A DNA stretch of 64,000 nt from Planctomycetota bacterium (GTDB lineage: Bacteria; Planctomycetota; MHYJ01; WSZJ01): positions 64,001 through 128,000 of the forward strand of contig JBBTCT010000001.1 of NCBI GenBank assembly GCA_038060895.1, written 5' to 3'. Below the pieces are notes generated by a model, which saw only the letters and a list, made by a program, of their open reading frames with translations, was not told the DNA's origin and ran no database searches. The position numbers were made by a program, and so were the translations under genes. Within the stretch, counting starts at the first letter, position 1. Each line of letters starts with the position of its first letter. Of this stretch, positions 48,721 through 55,084 are shown one piece after another.

Positions 48721-49137
48721 ATGCCACCGCTCAAATCCGCCGGATATTCGACTGTCATCCCGTTCCTCGCTGCGAGTGACGTCGAGAAGGCGCTGTCGTT
48801 CTACGAAGCGGTGTTCGGGCTTCGCCGCACGAACGTCAACATTCAGGACGGGAGAATCGTCCACTCGGAAATGGAAAGCGGCGGCGACATCGTGCTGATG
48901 GTCGCCCCCGATGCGATCCACTCCGAGCTGAACCGGTCCCCGGCGTCCCGCGGCGCCGTCTCGCCTTCGGAGATCTTCGTTTTCGTGGCCGACGCCGACC
49001 GTGCGCACGAACAGGCCCTGCTCCATGGCGGCAAGAGCCTGGCCGCGCCCCGCGATGTCCCCTGGGGCGAGCGGCACGCGCTGATCCAGGATCCCGACGG
49101 GTATCGCTGGCTTGTTTCGCAGAATCTCGGCGCCTGA
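48721..49137 (+). CDS. VOC/glyoxalase (PhnB-like) family protein
   Basis: TVIPFL...ALSFYEAVFG, GRIVHSEM, FVADADRA, PWGER...IQDPDGYRW. Confidence 0.88.
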   Translation: MPPLKSAGYSTVIPFLAASDVEKALSFYEAVFGLRRTNVNIQDGRIVHSEMESGGDIVLMVAPDAIHSELNRSPASRGAVSPSEIFVFVADADRAHEQALLHGGKSLAAPRDVPWGERHALIQDPDGYRWLVSQNLGA

Positions 49138-49156
49138 CCCTCTTCAGGAGTTCGCG

Positions 49157-51232
49157 ATGCGCCTCATCTTCGTCACGCTTCTCCTCGCCGCCGTTGCTTC
49201 TGCCGATGCCCTCGACGACACCCTCGCGAAGGTCGGCCTCGAACGCAAAGACCTCGGGTGGCGGCCGCGCGGATACTGGAACCGGTACCCGCAGGACATC
49301 CCGTACAAGCTCCGCCACTTCGACGATTGCCTCGCGGAGCCGCTTTCGGTCGTCAACGTCGCGAGGACGCTCGGCAACTCGGAGAAGCTCTTCCTCGACC
49401 CCGTCGCGCTCGCGAAGCCCGCGGAGAAGTCCGACGGCGCCCTTTACAAGGCCGCGTTCGCCCTCGGCGTCGAGCGCAGGATCGGAAGCTTCCGCGCGTA
49501 CTCGGCGAATCTCGTCGCGAAGGACACCGACATCGTCGAAGCGCTTCTTGAAGTCCTGCGCGACTCAGGCCGTCCGGACAAGCTGGTGACGTTTGGCAGC
49601 GAGTCACCGTACCCGGCCATCCGCAAGGACCTCGAGACCGCGGCCGCCGCCATTCCCGCCGCCGCCCGCCCGATCCTCGGCCGCCTCGTTCTCAACGCGC
49701 TCGACGCGCACCGCTGGACGAAGCTGGCCCTTCGAAACGTCCCCCTCGAGAAGCGCGTCGCGGCCTGTGCCCGCCTCGAGCTGGGCGTCGAGAACACCGA
49801 CGCGCTCGACTTCGAGCCCGCCGTCGACGACGTCGCGAAGGCATGGGACGAACCGTCGATGTGGTACGCGGGGCTCAAGTGCGTCGCGGCGCTCGACGAA
49901 GCGCGCCTGGCGCTGGGGAAGATAGCGGAAGCGCCGGGGCCGTTCGTGTTCGACTGGAAGTCGCCATACGGCTGGGTGCGCTTCCGCGGCACGGGAGACG
50001 ACGCGATCGACGCCGCCGACTCGTTCCTGATCGTGGATTTCGGGGGGAAGGACTCGTGGAAGGGGCCCGCGGGCGCGAATGACGCACTGCGTCACATTGC
50101 CCTGGCGCTGGATCTCGCCGGAAACGACACGTACAAGTCGGACGGCCCGGCGCAGGGCGCGGGGCTGTGCGGAATCGGCGTGCTCGTCGACGTGGCGGGC
50201 GACGACGACTACGCGGCGGAATGCTGCGCGCAGGGATTCGGCCAGCTCGGGATGGGCGTCCTCGCCGACCTGGACGGGAAGGATTCGTACTTCGTGAAAT
50301 TCCAGGGGCAGGGGGCCGCGTTCCTCGGCGTTGGAGAACTCCTCGAAATCGCCGGAGACGACACCTACGACCTCTGGTGCCACGGGCAGGGCTACGGCGC
50401 CGTGGGCGGCGTCGGCGTGCTGGCCGACCGCGCGGGGAACGACAGGTACGTCGCCGAGCGCGACCCCAACATCACCGGGCGGCCTTCCTACCACAGCGAG
50501 CTCAAGATCTCCGTCTCCGAGGCCCAGGGGTGCGGCATGGGTCGCCGCGGCGACGGCGCCGACGGACACTCGTGGGCCGGCGGGCTTGGCGCTCTCCTCG
50601 ACGCTTCCGGCGACGACAGCTACACGGCCGGCAACTGGTGCATGGGCACCGGCTACTGGTTCGGGACCGGCGTCCTCTGGGACGGCGGCGGCAACGACCA
50701 CTTCCGAGGCAGCGTCTGGTCCCAGGCCACCGGCGCGCACTTCTGTATCGGCGCGCTCGTCGACGAGGCCGGGAACGACTGGCACGTCGCGATGGACGGC
50801 GCCGTGAACTCGGTCGGCTTTGCCCACGACTTCACCGTCGCCCTGCTGGTCGACGCCGCCGGCGACGACACCTATGAGTCCGCGAACGGCCCCGCCACTT
50901 CCATCAATCGCTCCGTCGCCATGCTGCTCGACCTCGCCGGCGACGACACCTACGTCATGGCCGCCGGCAACCGCCCCGGCACCGCCGTGTTCGACGAGAA
51001 GTTCCGCGACCGCTCCGGCGGCGCTACGTACTTCGCCGACGCTTCCTCCATAGGCCTCTTCCTCGATGTCGGCGGCAGCGATAAGTACAACTCCCGCGAA
51101 GAGAGCAACTTCTCCTGGCTCGATCCTCCCGACTCTCCCAACCCCTCCGTGCGCAACTGGTCCGTCGGGGTCGACCGGGCGGATGGCACGGTTTCGCTCG
51201 ATCCAATCCCGGAGAAAACGCCGCGCAAATGA
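49157..51232 (+). CDS. Secreted protein with multiple GxGxxGxGxLxDxxG(D/N)DxY repeats
   Basis: CAGGAG RBS; signal peptide; about 10 repeats such as QGAGLCGIGVLVDVAGDDDY and QGYGAVGGVGVLADRAGNDRY. Confidence 0.78.
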   Translation: MRLIFVTLLLAAVASADALDDTLAKVGLERKDLGWRPRGYWNRYPQDIPYKLRHFDDCLAEPLSVVNVARTLGNSEKLFLDPVALAKPAEKSDGALYKAAFALGVERRIGSFRAYSANLVAKDTDIVEALLEVLRDSGRPDKLVTFGSESPYPAIRKDLETAAAAIPAAARPILGRLVLNALDAHRWTKLALRNVPLEKRVAACARLELGVENTDALDFEPAVDDVAKAWDEPSMWYAGLKCVAALDEARLALGKIAEAPGPFVFDWKSPYGWVRFRGTGDDAIDAADSFLIVDFGGKDSWKGPAGANDALRHIALALDLAGNDTYKSDGPAQGAGLCGIGVLVDVAGDDDYAAECCAQGFGQLGMGVLADLDGKDSYFVKFQGQGAAFLGVGELLEIAGDDTYDLWCHGQGYGAVGGVGVLADRAGNDRYVAERDPNITGRPSYHSELKISVSEAQGCGMGRRGDGADGHSWAGGLGALLDASGDDSYTAGNWCMGTGYWFGTGVLWDGGGNDHFRGSVWSQATGAHFCIGALVDEAGNDWHVAMDGAVNSVGFAHDFTVALLVDAAGDDTYESANGPATSINRSVAMLLDLAGDDTYVMAAGNRPGTAVFDEKFRDRSGGATYFADASSIGLFLDVGGSDKYNSREESNFSWLDPPDSPNPSVRNWSVGVDRADGTVSLDPIPEKTPRK

Positions 51233-51348
51233 GATGTCGAAGTTGGCGTTCCAGGCCCGTTCGCGTTGTAAGATTGCTTTCCTCAGATGTAACACCAAGG
51301 GCGTCCGTCCGTCCCTCCTTCATACCCCTCCTCTGCCCGGAGCCTCCC

Positions 51349-52377
51349 ATGCGCTTCGCACTCCCCGTCGCACTTCTCCTCGCGCTTCCCGCCCTCGCCC
51401 AGACGCCGAAGCAGGTGCCCATCAAGAAGGGCGTCAACGAAGTGGACACGGCCGAGGGGAAGTACTGGCTGGACATTCCGAACAACTACGACCCGAAGAA
51501 GCCGATGCCGGTGATCTGTTTCCTGCACGGGAAGACTGTTGACCTGAAGGCGGACAACGCGCGCGGGCAGCTGGACAACGCGTTCGTCATCCAGATGAAG
51601 AAGCGCGGCTACATTGCGGTGGCGCCGGTGATGCCTCCGGCGCACCGGCCGCACTGGTTTGAGAACGGGAACTCTTATCCGTTCATGGAGACGTGGCTGA
51701 CGGACCTGCACTCGAAGGTGAACGTGCAGTACATCGTCTGCAGCGGGTTCAGCGCCGGCGCGAACTACACGATGCACTACGGTCAGCACCGTACTTACCA
51801 CGCGTGGTTCTCGGGATACCTCGTGATGGCGGGCGGGTGTCCTGTCGACAAAGGAGCGCCGGAGCTGATCCGGAAGAAGCCGATCTGGCTCGGATGCGGC
51901 GACCAGGACAACGACATGTACGACGACAAGATGAACACGACCGGCGGCGCGCGGCTGACCTCGGCCGACCTCAAGGCCAACGGGTTCGACAGCTACTACG
52001 ACGAGTTCCCGAAGGTCGGGCACACGATGGACCAGAAAATGGTCGAGAAGGCGCTCGTTTTCCACGACGCCAACCAGGGGAACTTCGCCGCGATCGGCGC
52101 GTGCATGAGGGCCAGCCAGATCAAGGACAAGGAGCCGGCGAAAGCGCTCGTGCTCCTTGAGATGTCTGCGGCCGGAAAGCTGAAAGCGAACGAGTACTGG
52201 GCGAAGAAGGTCGCCGAAACCACGACGGCCATCGTCGATGCCGCGAAGAAGGCCATTGCCGCTGCGGTCGCGATGACGGACGAAGCGAAGAAGAAAGAGG
52301 AGCTGGGGAAGCTCGGGCAGGCATGGGTCGGGACGAGCGTTGAGAAGCTCGTGAAGGATGCGATGGCCAAGAAGTAG
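51349..52377 (+). CDS. Secreted alpha/beta hydrolase (esterase/peptidase-like)
   Basis: Signal peptide; YWLDIPNNYDPKKPMPVICFLHG; nucleophile motif GFSAG; GDQD; VGH. Confidence 0.8.
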   Translation: MRFALPVALLLALPALAQTPKQVPIKKGVNEVDTAEGKYWLDIPNNYDPKKPMPVICFLHGKTVDLKADNARGQLDNAFVIQMKKRGYIAVAPVMPPAHRPHWFENGNSYPFMETWLTDLHSKVNVQYIVCSGFSAGANYTMHYGQHRTYHAWFSGYLVMAGGCPVDKGAPELIRKKPIWLGCGDQDNDMYDDKMNTTGGARLTSADLKANGFDSYYDEFPKVGHTMDQKMVEKALVFHDANQGNFAAIGACMRASQIKDKEPAKALVLLEMSAAGKLKANEYWAKKVAETTTAIVDAAKKAIAAAVAMTDEAKKKEELGKLGQAWVGTSVEKLVKDAMAKK

Positions 52378-52436: not shown

Positions 52437-53567
52437 CTACTTGATCTTCCGGAATTCGGCGTTGCCGCCCTGTTCCCAGACGACCCCGACCGATTTCCCG
52501 GCCGAAAGGCTCGGGTACGTCGCTTCGGCGCCGTCGGCGCTCATCCGCTCCGGTTTGGCTCCCGCCGCGGACGTCTGCATCCATATCCCGGGCTTCCCGC
52601 CTCGCGCGTCTTCCCAGGCGATGTAGAAGACGCCGGTGCTGTCAGCGCCTGCGCTGGGATGGCCCTGCACGCCCTCGGGCTTCTCGGGCAGGAGCGCCTC
52701 GGGTGGAAGCTGGCCGCCTGCCGATGACACCGCCCACATCACGTCGCGGTCCTTGCCGCCCGGATTCCCCATCCAGCCCACCGCAAACCTCTTTCCATCG
52801 TCGCTCACGGCGACCGTGGGGGCGTCCATGGGTCAGTCGGGTATCTTTGTGTCCTTCTTGTTCACGCGCGCCGGCGGCGCGAACGACTTTCCTCCGTCAC
52901 GCGACATCGTCAGGAAGATCTCGCGGCTCGAGTCGTCCGCCATCTCCCGGTAGGCAACGAACGGGTTTCCTTTGCCGTCAATCGCAATGCCCGGCGCACA
53001 GCAGGGACAAACGGGCGGTGAAATCTTCACGTTCTTCCCCACCTTGCCGCCCGACACCTTCGCATACCAGAGGCTGTTCCCCTTCCCCGCCCGGTCGTCG
53101 AGCCAGACGACGTGCGCGTCCCCGGCGTCCGATACAGCGAGCTGGTGAAGCGATTCGGCGGCGGAACCCGGCGTGTCGTTGACCTGCACGGGCTTCTCGA
53201 ACGTCTTGCCGCCGTCCTTCGAGATCGCAAGCCAGAGCTCGCACTTCGGATACTTCTCCTTCTGTTTCTCCGGGTCAAAGCAAAGCGGCGCGGTGATGAA
53301 GACGTCCTTCTTCCCATCGACCCCGATACGCGGCCCGCGCTGCTTCCCGCCCTGGGCCTTACCCTTCACGTCGATCGCGACCGCGGGGGCGCTCCAGGTC
53401 TTGCCGCCGTCCGTGGAGATCGACAGCTCGATATTCCCGTTGCGCACGAACGTGCAGTAGAACGCGCCGTCGGAATCCTGCGCGAGCTGGGGCTGGGTTG
53501 CGCCGGAGGCGACAGTTTCTGCCACGGCTGCGCTGGCGAGCAACAGGACGGCGAAGAGGCTTCTCAT
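52437..53567 (-). CDS. Secreted BNR/Asp-box (sialidase-like) beta-propeller protein; candidate selenoprotein (in-frame TGA at 52833-52835 = U245)
   Basis: ORFs 52833-53579 and 52437-52829 share one frame, joined by TGA-CCC-ATG (KIPD-U-PMDAP); Asp boxes STDGGKTW, SKDGGKTF, SRDGGKSF; CPCC motif; signal peptide from ATG 53567. Confidence 0.75.
52795..52832 (-). promoter_or_regulatory. Putative bacterial SECIS element
   Basis: After UGA: C-CCAU-GGA-CGC-CCC-CACG-[GUCGC]-CGUG-A-GCG-ACG-AUGG; the apical loop starts with GU, 19 nt after the UGA. Confidence 0.6.
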
Positions 53568-53575
53568 GCCCGAAA

Positions 53576-55084
53576 TCATACCCCGGAAGCCGCCTGGATG
53601 GCACCCGAGGAAATGAGATCGCGGACGCGTTCGATGTCGGCCGACATCGCCCGGTCGCGATCCAGCCGCCTTGACTTCGAGCGGATCAGCCGGTGCACGC
53701 GCTCGAGGGCGGCGCTGGACCGGAGCGGACGGTGAAACTCGATTCCCTGCGCCGCGGCGATCAGTTCGATCGCGACGACACGCTCGACGTTGTCGAGGAT
53801 CCGGCGGAGCTTCAACACCGCCGTCACCCCCATGGAGACATGGTCTTCCTTGTTCGCGGACGTCGGGATCGAATCGACGGAGGCAGGGTGGGCGAACACC
53901 TTGTTCTCGCTGACCAGCGCGGCCGCAACGACCTGCAGGATCATCATCCCGCTGTTCAGGCCGCTCTCGCGGGAGAGGAAGGGCGGGAGGCCGCTCAGGT
54001 CCGGATTGACGAGGTTCTCCGTGCGTCGCTCGCTGATCGCGCCGAACTCGCAGATGCCGAGCGCGACGAAGTCGGCGGCCTGCGCGACCGGCTGGCCGTG
54101 AAAGTTGCCGCCGGAGAGAATCGCGCCGTCGTCCGGGAAGACAAGCGGGTTGTCGGTCGCGGAGTTCATCTCAATTTCGACCACGCGCTCCGCGAACGCC
54201 ATCGCGTCCCGCGCGGCGCCGTGCACCTGGGGCACGCACCGGAGCGAGTACTGGTCCTGCACCTTGCCGCAGTTCTTGTGCGACACGCGGATCGCGCTGC
54301 CTCTCATGAGATCCCGAACCCGCTTCGCCACCAGCCCCTGCCCCGGGTGAGGACGCACCTCCTGGATCCGCGCGTCGAACGCCGACGTCGTCCCCTTCAG
54401 CGCGTCCAGCGTCAGCGCCGCCGCGATGTCCGAAGCGTCGGCCAGCCGGCGGGCGCGCAGGAGGCTGATGGCGAGAAGCGACGACATGATCTGCGTCCCG
54501 TTGATGAGCGAGATTCCCTCTTTCGCGCCGAGCTGCAGCGGTTTCAGTCCCGCGAACTTCAAGGCCACCAGGCCGGGGACTCTCCTTCCGGACGGAAGGA
54601 ACGCCTCGCCTTCCCCGATGAGGACCAGCGCCAGGTGCGCCAGCGGCGCCAGGTCGCCCGACGCCCCGACGCTTCCCTGCTCCGGAATCACCGGGACGAC
54701 GCCCGAATTGGCGAGGTGAACGAGCTGGGCGACAACCCGGCGACGGACGCCCGAGTGACCGCGCACCAGCGTGTTCGCGCGAAGAAGGACGGCCACCCGC
54801 GCTTCGGCGGACGACAGCGGCGCGCCCACCCCCACGGCATGGCTACGCAGCAGGTTGAGCTGCAGGTCGCGGATCTGGGCGTCCGGAATCCGGACATTCG
54901 CAAGCCGCCCGAACCCCGTGTTCACCCCGTAGATCGCTTTCCCGGACGCCAGCAGCTTCTCGACCACTTTCCTCGCCGCGTCCACTCGCTTCCATGCCGC
55001 CGGAGCCACCCGCGCGGCATCGCCCCCGAGGAAGCGCGCGACGTCGTCCAGCGAGACTGACCGACCGTCGAGGCGAATGGGCAT
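53576..55084 (-). CDS. hutH: Histidine ammonia-lyase
   Basis: YGVNTGFG, NLLRSHAVG, MIO-forming GSVGASGDLAPLAH, KEGISLINGTQ, VQDQYSLRC, GGNFHGQP, SANKEDHVSMG. Confidence 0.95.
   Translation of the reverse strand: MPIRLDGRSVSLDDVARFLGGDAARVAPAAWKRVDAARKVVEKLLASGKAIYGVNTGFGRLANVRIPDAQIRDLQLNLLRSHAVGVGAPLSSAEARVAVLLRANTLVRGHSGVRRRVVAQLVHLANSGVVPVIPEQGSVGASGDLAPLAHLALVLIGEGEAFLPSGRRVPGLVALKFAGLKPLQLGAKEGISLINGTQIMSSLLAISLLRARRLADASDIAAALTLDALKGTTSAFDARIQEVRPHPGQGLVAKRVRDLMRGSAIRVSHKNCGKVQDQYSLRCVPQVHGAARDAMAFAERVVEIEMNSATDNPLVFPDDGAILSGGNFHGQPVAQAADFVALGICEFGAISERRTENLVNPDLSGLPPFLSRESGLNSGMMILQVVAAALVSENKVFAHPASVDSIPTSANKEDHVSMGVTAVLKLRRILDNVERVVAIELIAAAQGIEFHRPLRSSAALERVHRLIRSKSRRLDRDRAMSADIERVRDLISSGAIQAASGV

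Follow-up and report, generated by a model that had tools for sequence, protein, structure and literature searches.

A predicted exported beta-propeller selenoprotein of an uncatalogued family in a Planctomycetota genome

The window analysed here is a stretch of 64,000 nucleotides (nt) from a Planctomycetota bacterium (assembly GCA_038060895.1, contig JBBTCT010000001.1, positions 64,001 to 128,000), and the subject of this study is a gene on its minus strand that very likely encodes a selenoprotein. The gene occupies positions 52437..53579 and forms a single frame from an ATG at 53579, or from a second ATG at 53567, to a TAG at 52439-52437; the frame holds 380 codons from the first ATG and 376 from the second, one TGA included. 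Its limits are given by the frame itself and by full-length Cys homologues of 366-402 amino acids (aa), which align with it end to end. The sole interruption is the TGA at 52835-52833, in the context ...NKKDTKIPD-TGA-PMDAPTVAV..., which is codon 249 (U249) counted from the first ATG and codon 245 (U245) counted from the second. A sequence-only reading of the window had joined two called open reading frames (ORFs) into one frame broken by a single TGA and had numbered the residue U245. The frame is confirmed on the minus strand, with propeller-blade motifs on both sides of the TGA, whereas translation of the plus strand over the range gives no meaningful product; the number holds when counting starts at the second ATG.

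The gene begins with a predicted signal peptide of the general secretory (Sec) type at 53520..53579, MISGMRSLFAVLLLASAAVA followed by ETV, without a twin arginine; the call is a visual judgement. The N-termini of homologues are of the same kind, and in the predicted model of the protein the N-terminal helix (residues 3-15) has a low predicted local distance difference test score (pLDDT). Two further motifs named in the earlier reading are both present in the read-through product, as can be seen from the sequence, the model and the alignments. Cys191-Pro-Cys193-Cys194 (CPCC; 52998..53009) lies in the loop that leads into the innermost strand of blade 4, and U249-Pro-Met-Asp (52824..52835) in the equivalent loop of blade 5. 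The first Asp-box, S-x-D-x-G-x-T-W, covers residues 55-62 (53394..53417) and coincides with a Pfam BNR match (PF02012) at residues 54-63; further Asp-boxes are found at residues 120-127 and 226-233. The assignment of 52833..52835 as a selenocysteine codon draws, among other evidence, on homologous proteins, the DNA of relatives and an independent contig.

The homologues were collected by a search of 5.8 billion proteins. Among the best 120 clusters, cysteine occupies the TGA column in all 27 that extend past it. The remaining 93 are entries of 234-286 aa whose last residue falls in register just before that column; exact local alignment placed 14 of them and register the other 79. When 20 relatives at 26-42% identity are aligned, only six columns are invariant, column 249 among them (G59, P83, S120, D122, C249, W269). 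Cysteine at the TGA column, which the sequence-only reading expected of homologues, is thus found in 27 of 27 of the best clusters and in 20 of 20 distant relatives. The same reading had named CxCC and C-P-x-x-G-P as motifs of related proteins; relatives do carry both, and still more distant ones have CxCC and C-P-[VHM]-x-G-P. These comparisons strongly support the view that Sec249 takes the place of the most conserved cysteine of the whole family.

The TGA itself recurs in relatives. Across 28 species-representative loci the column is TGA in 22 and TGC or TGT in six, and TGA loci extend down to 37% identity; all distinct loci that passed the motif filter comprise 27 with TGA, four with TGC and one with TGT. 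Carriers of the TGA include metagenome-assembled genomes labelled Gemmataceae, Mariniblastus, Planctomycetaceae, Gemmatimonadales and Armatimonas. A sample of 401 genomes evenly drawn from the phylum gave 14 matches at E <= 1e-30 in 13 genomes; exactly one internal TGA is present in 11 of the 14 matches and none in three. A maximum-likelihood tree of 45 rows (23 Sec and 22 Cys, a ratio that reflects the choice of rows and not natural frequency) requires at least nine changes between Sec and Cys on well-supported branches.

The frame after the TGA is under selection as a coding sequence. In all of 16 loci it remains open for 125-136 codons, and in ten pairs the ratio of nonsynonymous to synonymous substitution rates (dN/dS) is 0.08-0.59 downstream of the TGA versus 0.07-0.39 upstream, which indicates that the two halves are equally constrained by purifying selection. 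Contig X5 (530 nt), from an independent study, spans 52760-53289 with the TGA included and shows no differences; an assembly error is ruled out because this contig from another study reads identical bases. A second contig, X9, comes from an RNA library and covers 52486-52697, but it is no proof of transcription because such a library may contain DNA.

The genome that holds the window (G000, 86.5% complete) has selA, selB, selC and selD, the set named in the sequence-only reading. The selA match scores 541 bits, selB 310.7 bits (344.3 with a second piece), selD 364 bits and tRNA-Sec 71.7 bits, the latter with the anticodon TCA according to ARAGORN. selD has a TGA of its own at the canonical position, in ...SSCAG-U-ASKLGP.... 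The selB gene (G000 contig C1:134888-136777) lies on the same contig as the window, about 7 kb past its end and about 17 kb from the propeller gene. The selD gene (contig C2:48628-49548, locus L010) has a 6-bp hairpin with the loop GGC about 17 nt after its UGA, unlike the hairpin of the propeller gene. In the phylum sample, selA was above the cut-off in all 11 TGA-bearing genomes and, as background, in 285 of the 401 genomes.

A candidate bacterial selenocysteine insertion sequence (SECIS) hairpin is located at 52795..52819, identified from folding energy, pairing in relatives and a published consensus model. The consensus combines an apical loop of 3-9 nt that has a G within its first two positions with a stem of 4 bp or more, a spacing from UGA to loop of 16-37 nt and a minimum free energy of -7.5 kcal/mol or lower (legend of Fig. 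2 in PMC13188914). Counted from the U of UGA, the window hairpin pairs GUCGC with GCGAC (nt 22-26 with 32-36) around the apical loop CGUGA, with an outer CCA/UGG extension. Its geometry fits the consensus: the stem has 5 bp, and the loop begins 23 nt after the UGA and has G at its second position. The 30-nt segment folds at -12.4 kcal/mol.

Pairing in relatives was followed in 26 TGA loci. The 5' arm (nt 20-26, the Ala-Val-Ala codons) pairs with nt 32-37 in 70.7% of cells versus 22-47% when the arms are slid against each other. An alternative register, B, in which the same arm pairs with nt 35-41, is paired in 78.3% of cells and shows no covariation. In the hairpin kept overall, nt 20-26 make up the 5' arm, the loop begins with C-G-U-G, and the 3' arm falls within nt 32-41. 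The pair 24:34 occurs as U-A (7), C-G (6) and G-C (2), and as many double changes arose in only 6 of 500 shuffles. A contiguous hairpin that complies with the model at -7.5 kcal/mol or lower is present in 13 of the 26 TGA loci and in none of five Cys loci; of 9,415 other in-frame positions in these genes, 10.4% have such a hairpin. In a shuffle test of the local 30 nt, the Cys forms gave a mean z of +0.41 (n=5).

The pairing that the sequence-only reading had put forward as SECIS (CCAU/AUGG, CGC/GCG, CACG/CGUG) can form in the window but is paired in 64% of the relatives' cells, a level no higher than that of shuffles, and it was rejected since it has no conservation beyond them. A separate hairpin was seen in the clade with the motif P-M-S-A-P (L030, L034, L036, L038, L039, L042, L043), where the 4-bp stem CGGC/GCCG with the loop GGUC covers nt 17-28 after the UGA or UGC, starting 17 nt on, in Sec and Cys forms alike. 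It could be an alternative SECIS of that clade.

Several observations weigh against the SECIS and, with it, against selenocysteine at this position. The bare contiguous 5-bp hairpin of the window has only -5.7 kcal/mol, and the limit of -7.5 kcal/mol is reached only with the outer pairs. Covariation is limited to one stem pair. The 57 nt that follow the UGA gain no stability over synonymous-codon shuffles (mean z of +0.51; none of 25 below -1.64), and the local 30-nt hairpin gains only a little (mean z of -0.48; 0.05 or less in 3 of 25). RNAfold gives a non-significant z of -0.36 for the 71 nt that surround the TGA, and Rfam has nothing relevant at the locus. The A-V-A-V-S-x-D-G motif written in GC-rich codons largely produces such a hairpin by itself, and the hairpin counts are not independent because the sequences are related. 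The presence of selA in every carrier is consistent with selenocysteine but not discriminating, because selA is common in the phylum. Finally, residue 249 is a predicted selenocysteine, known from sequence comparison.

The hairpin is therefore best described as a plausible SECIS with moderate statistical support, and the case for selenocysteine, as far as sequences can make it, is built mainly on the Sec/Cys pattern and not on the SECIS. With these points counted, we consider it very probable that the locus holds a genuine selenoprotein gene whose family is uncatalogued, a judgement that covers the selenoprotein reading and not the chemistry of the protein. The two called ORFs would be one minus-strand gene for an exported protein; the UGA at 52835-52833 is, with strong support from the comparisons above, decoded as selenocysteine by the genome's own SelA, SelB, SelD and tRNA-Sec, and insertion is probably aided by the hairpin whose apical loop C-G-U-G... 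starts 23 nt downstream. This also upholds the first reading's view of a single exported selenoprotein with the TGA as its selenocysteine codon; its length is 376-380 aa, and export is judged from the signal peptide by eye.

The protein is predicted to be a seven-bladed Asp-box beta-propeller of about 360 residues after removal of the signal peptide. Pfam BNR_2 (PF13088) scores 38.1 bits (cut-off 31.4) and BNR 31.8 bits (cut-off 27). The AlphaFold2 model, built on a 25-row alignment, has a pLDDT of 90.1 and a predicted template modelling score of 0.90. Its strands form seven four-stranded blades, with the N-terminal strand 21-25 completing blade 7. The best matches by VIA-align are all seven-bladed propellers: CylK (7ron; Z 33.3, root mean square deviation (rmsd) 3.2 Å, 328 residues aligned), GH145 (5mum; Z 29.0), the BP39L lectin (6gxr; Z 27.0), integrin alpha subunits and hydrazine synthase (5c2v_B). 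CylK, GH145, BP39L and hydrazine synthase share the fold (Z 25.6-33.3, rmsd 2.9-3.2 Å, 289-335 residues aligned), but their sequence identity is 9-11% and there is no evident common active-site motif. Fold similarity of this kind does not establish function. Foldseek against the Protein Data Bank returned lectins, GH145 and sialidases at a template modelling score of about 0.6; these and the VIA-align matches are generic propellers, and neither set indicates a function.

The sequence-only reading had called the protein a sialidase-like propeller. Of this claim the Asp-box propeller stands, with BNR and BNR_2 above their cut-offs, whereas membership in the sialidases is unproven. The model has seven blades versus the six of the GH33 sialidases, and profile similarity to solved sialidases is weak and confined to residues 49-138, in the Asp-box region (best E 9.8e-8). 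The GH33 exo-alpha-sialidase site consists of an arginine triad, a Tyr/Glu nucleophile pair and an Asp acid/base. The hub here has Cys, Sec, His and Met instead; no glycosidase-site match was recognised, in a comparison made with the catalytic residues not aligned. Relatives are named 'hypothetical', 'glycoside hydrolase' or 'sialidase family protein' at source, and the protein clusters found with P0003, a natural Cys homologue, all bear the name 'sialidase family protein'. Among other families, NCBIfam NF053835 (PDIAV motif-containing lipoprotein) reaches 33.6 bits over residues 125-216 versus a cut-off of 90.

In a beta-propeller the loops before the innermost strands ring one face at the central axis, the usual place of active sites. 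The motifs in these loops are ..QP.. in blade 1, QRGPR in blade 2, E..H in blade 3, CPCCAPG in blade 4, UPMDAP in blade 5, Q.HP in blade 6 and YP in blade 7. From these equivalent loops and the propeller architecture, Sec249 and Cys191/193/194 would be placed at the hub on adjacent blades. The positions invariant in 28 of 28 orthologues include Q80, R81, G82, P83, R84, E142, H145, C191, C193, C194, C/U249, P250 and M251. Of these, C191, C194 and C249 are retained in distant relatives. All six relatives without C193 also lack M251, and M251 is kept in nine of the 13 with C193; this co-variation may reflect one clade. On the hub face, Sec249 and Cys191-x-Cys193-Cys194 would stand together with Gln80, Arg81, Arg84, Glu142, His145 and Met251 and would make one selenium- and sulfur-rich active site. 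This topology and conservation make plausible the proposal of the first reading that Sec249 and CPCC together build a single redox or soft-metal site.

What this site does is a matter for more tentative statements. By analogy with known proteins, we suggest with some hesitation that the hub binds or redox-handles copper or another thiophilic metal outside the cytoplasm. A comparable motif is known from CopG (DUF411), a periplasmic copper-resistance protein that holds a four-copper cluster by CxCC and two Met and has a thioredoxin-like domain (PMC7558416). Like CopG, the protein would be extracytoplasmic with a Cys-rich motif and Met (here CPCC and U-P-M). In contrast to CopG, it has a predicted propeller fold, and no Pfam match to the DUF411 domain was obtained at E up to 1. 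Copper genes are absent from the 79 neighbour ORFs of close loci; a heavy-metal P-type ATPase adjoins one distant relative (L113). Selenocysteine serves as a metal ligand among Cys residues in formate dehydrogenase (Mo/W-Se) and in [NiFeSe] hydrogenase (Ni-Se), as described in a review (PMC13188914). These families are unrelated to the propeller, and their cofactors are assembled in the cytoplasm, whereas any metal here would arrive after export because of the Sec-type signal peptide called by eye.

Gene neighbourhoods were scanned with Pfam in 79 ORFs around about 20 close loci and in 43 of the 58 ORFs from 18 loci of distant relatives with CxCC...CP. No conserved neighbour was found in an all-against-all comparison of flanking ORFs. 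Among the 79 neighbour ORFs of close loci there was no copper-related or sulfur-carrier (ThiS/MoaD) domain, nor any other recurrent partner. Proteins with AhpC/TSA domains adjoin the close loci L035 and L056. They are 694 and 746 aa long (L035:5126-7210 and L056:4864-7101), have a C-terminal AhpC/TSA (thioredoxin-fold) domain, and are encoded on the same strand as the Sec-form gene, downstream of it. In two metagenome loci (L052:1-2985 and L056:191-1684), genes for an extracytoplasmic function (ECF) sigma factor (Sigma70_r4_2) and a FecR anti-sigma factor stand directly upstream of the Sec-form gene, a context that hints at regulation by envelope signals in this clade.

Distant relatives have other neighbours. 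A gene of the TonB-dependent-receptor type (PF00593, PF07715 or PF25183) adjoins six of the 18 distant loci (L063, L065, L072, L096, L097, L108), which hold relatives at 23-33% identity. In L063, L065 and L072 it is located immediately upstream on the same strand, which suggests that propeller and receptor genes make a two-gene envelope unit. Thioredoxin-domain neighbours occur at the distant loci L045 and L108. The heavy-metal P-type ATPase with YHS and HMBD domains (L113:192-2465, minus strand) adjoins a distant Cys-form relative, from which it is divergent, and is the only copper-type neighbour among all loci scanned.

Against a metal site at the hub stand the lack of a conserved neighbour and of copper-related or sulfur-carrier domains in the 79 ORFs around close loci, and the loss of H145 and M251 in distant relatives; moreover, the geometry of one shared site is taken from the propeller architecture. 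The same selenoprotein could have a metal-free redox centre at its hub, in which Sec249 would form a selenenylsulfide with Cys194 or Cys191. Its small substrate could be, for example, a peroxide, a polysulfide or disulfide, or an oxyanion bound by Arg81/Arg84/Gln80, and recycling would be carried out by periplasmic thioredoxin-like proteins. Most selenoproteins are thiol-type oxidoreductases, according to the review (PMC13188914). Two invariant Arg and one Gln should lie on the same face, and four loci have thioredoxin-fold neighbours (AhpC/TSA at L035 and L056, a thioredoxin domain at L045 and L108). However, these are only four of about 38 loci examined, the protein has no UxxC/CxxU motif, and C193 and M251 vary together as sets of ligands do. 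We hold a metal-free selenol/thiol redox centre to be possible at best, yet nearly as likely as the thiophilic-metal site; the rest of the probability goes to other chemistry or to a structural role.

Other explanations concern the TGA itself and are far less likely. Read-through of UGA is known in bacteria. The codon could thus be read as Trp, Cys or Gly by near-cognate decoding or in a variant code, with no selenocysteine, and the only moderate SECIS statistics are in line with this. On the other hand, TGA is an ordinary stop in this genome, where the lyase gene upstream ends in TGA and selA and selB have no internal stops; the complete Sec machinery is present and used, with selD itself containing a TGA, and an exclusive alternation of TGA with Cys codons is a signature of selenocysteine. 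Such decoding is in our view very improbable.

We give slightly less credit still to a true stop at the TGA, which would leave an exported N-terminal part of 248 aa together with a C-terminal part of 130 aa restarted at an ATG, or the N-terminal part alone. An ATG (Met251) does lie 3 nt after the TGA, and gene callers annotate the pieces apart, with 93 truncated entries among the best 120 clusters. Met251, however, is equally conserved in Cys forms (CPMDAP), where a restart is needless, and the downstream piece could not join its exported partner because it is without a signal peptide. In addition, blades 5-7 are needed for closure of the propeller, in which the N-terminal strand 21-25 completes blade 7, and a split point would not demand a column restricted to TGA and Cys codons. 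The least credible explanation of all is a pseudogene, with a TGA that arose by recent nonsense mutation or through an error of sequencing or assembly. The bare fact of an in-frame stop might suggest it, but it is refuted, as far as sequence data can do so, by the TGA in 22 of 28 species loci down to 37% identity, by dN/dS downstream equal to that upstream, and by the same bases in two assemblies from different studies.

Selenocysteine thus remains the preferred reading of the codon. Upstream of the gene, on the same strand, lies a gene for an aromatic amino-acid (histidine-type) ammonia-lyase at 53576..55084 (Pfam Lyase_aromatic, 642 bits), whose TGA stop shares bases with the selenoprotein gene's first ATG (ATGA); this neighbour is common only to the closest relative, L020. 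On the other side, two plus-strand ORFs of 706 aa (49112-51232) and 382 aa (51229-52377) overlap by their stop and start and have signal-peptide-like N-termini; neither has a Pfam match at E <= 1e-5. The 706-aa ORF is full of repeats of the G-x-D-x-Y type, and the 382-aa ORF converges on the selenoprotein gene.

With respect to known selenoproteins, the decoding is of the standard kind and the fold is unusual. The gene resembles bacterial Sec/Cys genes with a SECIS inside the ORF, for which E. coli fdhF is the paradigm: it has an in-frame UGA, Cys homologues with frequent Sec/Cys switching, a downstream hairpin spaced by 23 nt with G as the second loop nucleotide, and selA, selB, selD and tRNA-Sec in the genome. 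Unlike catalogued selenoproteins, which have mostly thioredoxin-like folds according to the review, this protein is an exported beta-propeller and has no UxxC/CxxU (PMC13188914). Table 1 of this May 2026 review, with 119 families and subfamilies, contains no BNR, sialidase or propeller entry, and its main text has no mention of sialidase, BNR, propeller, glycoside hydrolase, neuraminidase or Planctomycet. The same holds for sialidase, BNR, propeller, glycoside hydrolase and Planctomycet in the main texts of the deep-Sep and BSepDB (PMC13326102) papers. The searched part of the BSepDB supplement has no sialidase, BNR, propeller or 'glycos', although its family table (Table S2) may lie outside that part. 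In NCBIfam release 20.0 there are three weak matches at E up to 1, no selenoprotein model among them, and a full-text literature search found no paper describing such a propeller selenoprotein. The statement of the sequence-only reading that this is not a recognised selenoprotein family agrees with its absence from the catalogues searched and from the selenoprotein models of that release.

Selenocysteine is almost always found in the reactive centre of a protein. Since it usually marks such a centre, the single invariant cysteine column would be the working residue of a large family. It is possible, though rather doubtful, that Sec is the catalytic residue of a very large exported superfamily of seven-bladed propellers that are not glycosidases; 867 representatives were found at E <= 1e-30, all labelled sialidase or hypothetical. 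If true, the superfamily would represent a new class of proteins with a Cys/Sec hub that act outside the cytoplasm as enzymes or in metal handling; in some lineages they would work with TonB-dependent outer-membrane receptors, and the protein described here would be the first beta-propeller selenoenzyme.

Gene callers cut the family at the TGA, as in 93 of the 120 nearest clusters, and the selenocysteine reading corrects hundreds of records. It adds an exported, non-thioredoxin fold to the list of bacterial selenoproteins, and the presence of selA in 285 of the 401 genomes of the sample suggests that selenium is widely used in Planctomycetota. The position of the selenocysteine marks the likely active site of a widespread secreted family that is labelled as sialidases in databases, and provides a handle for experiments.

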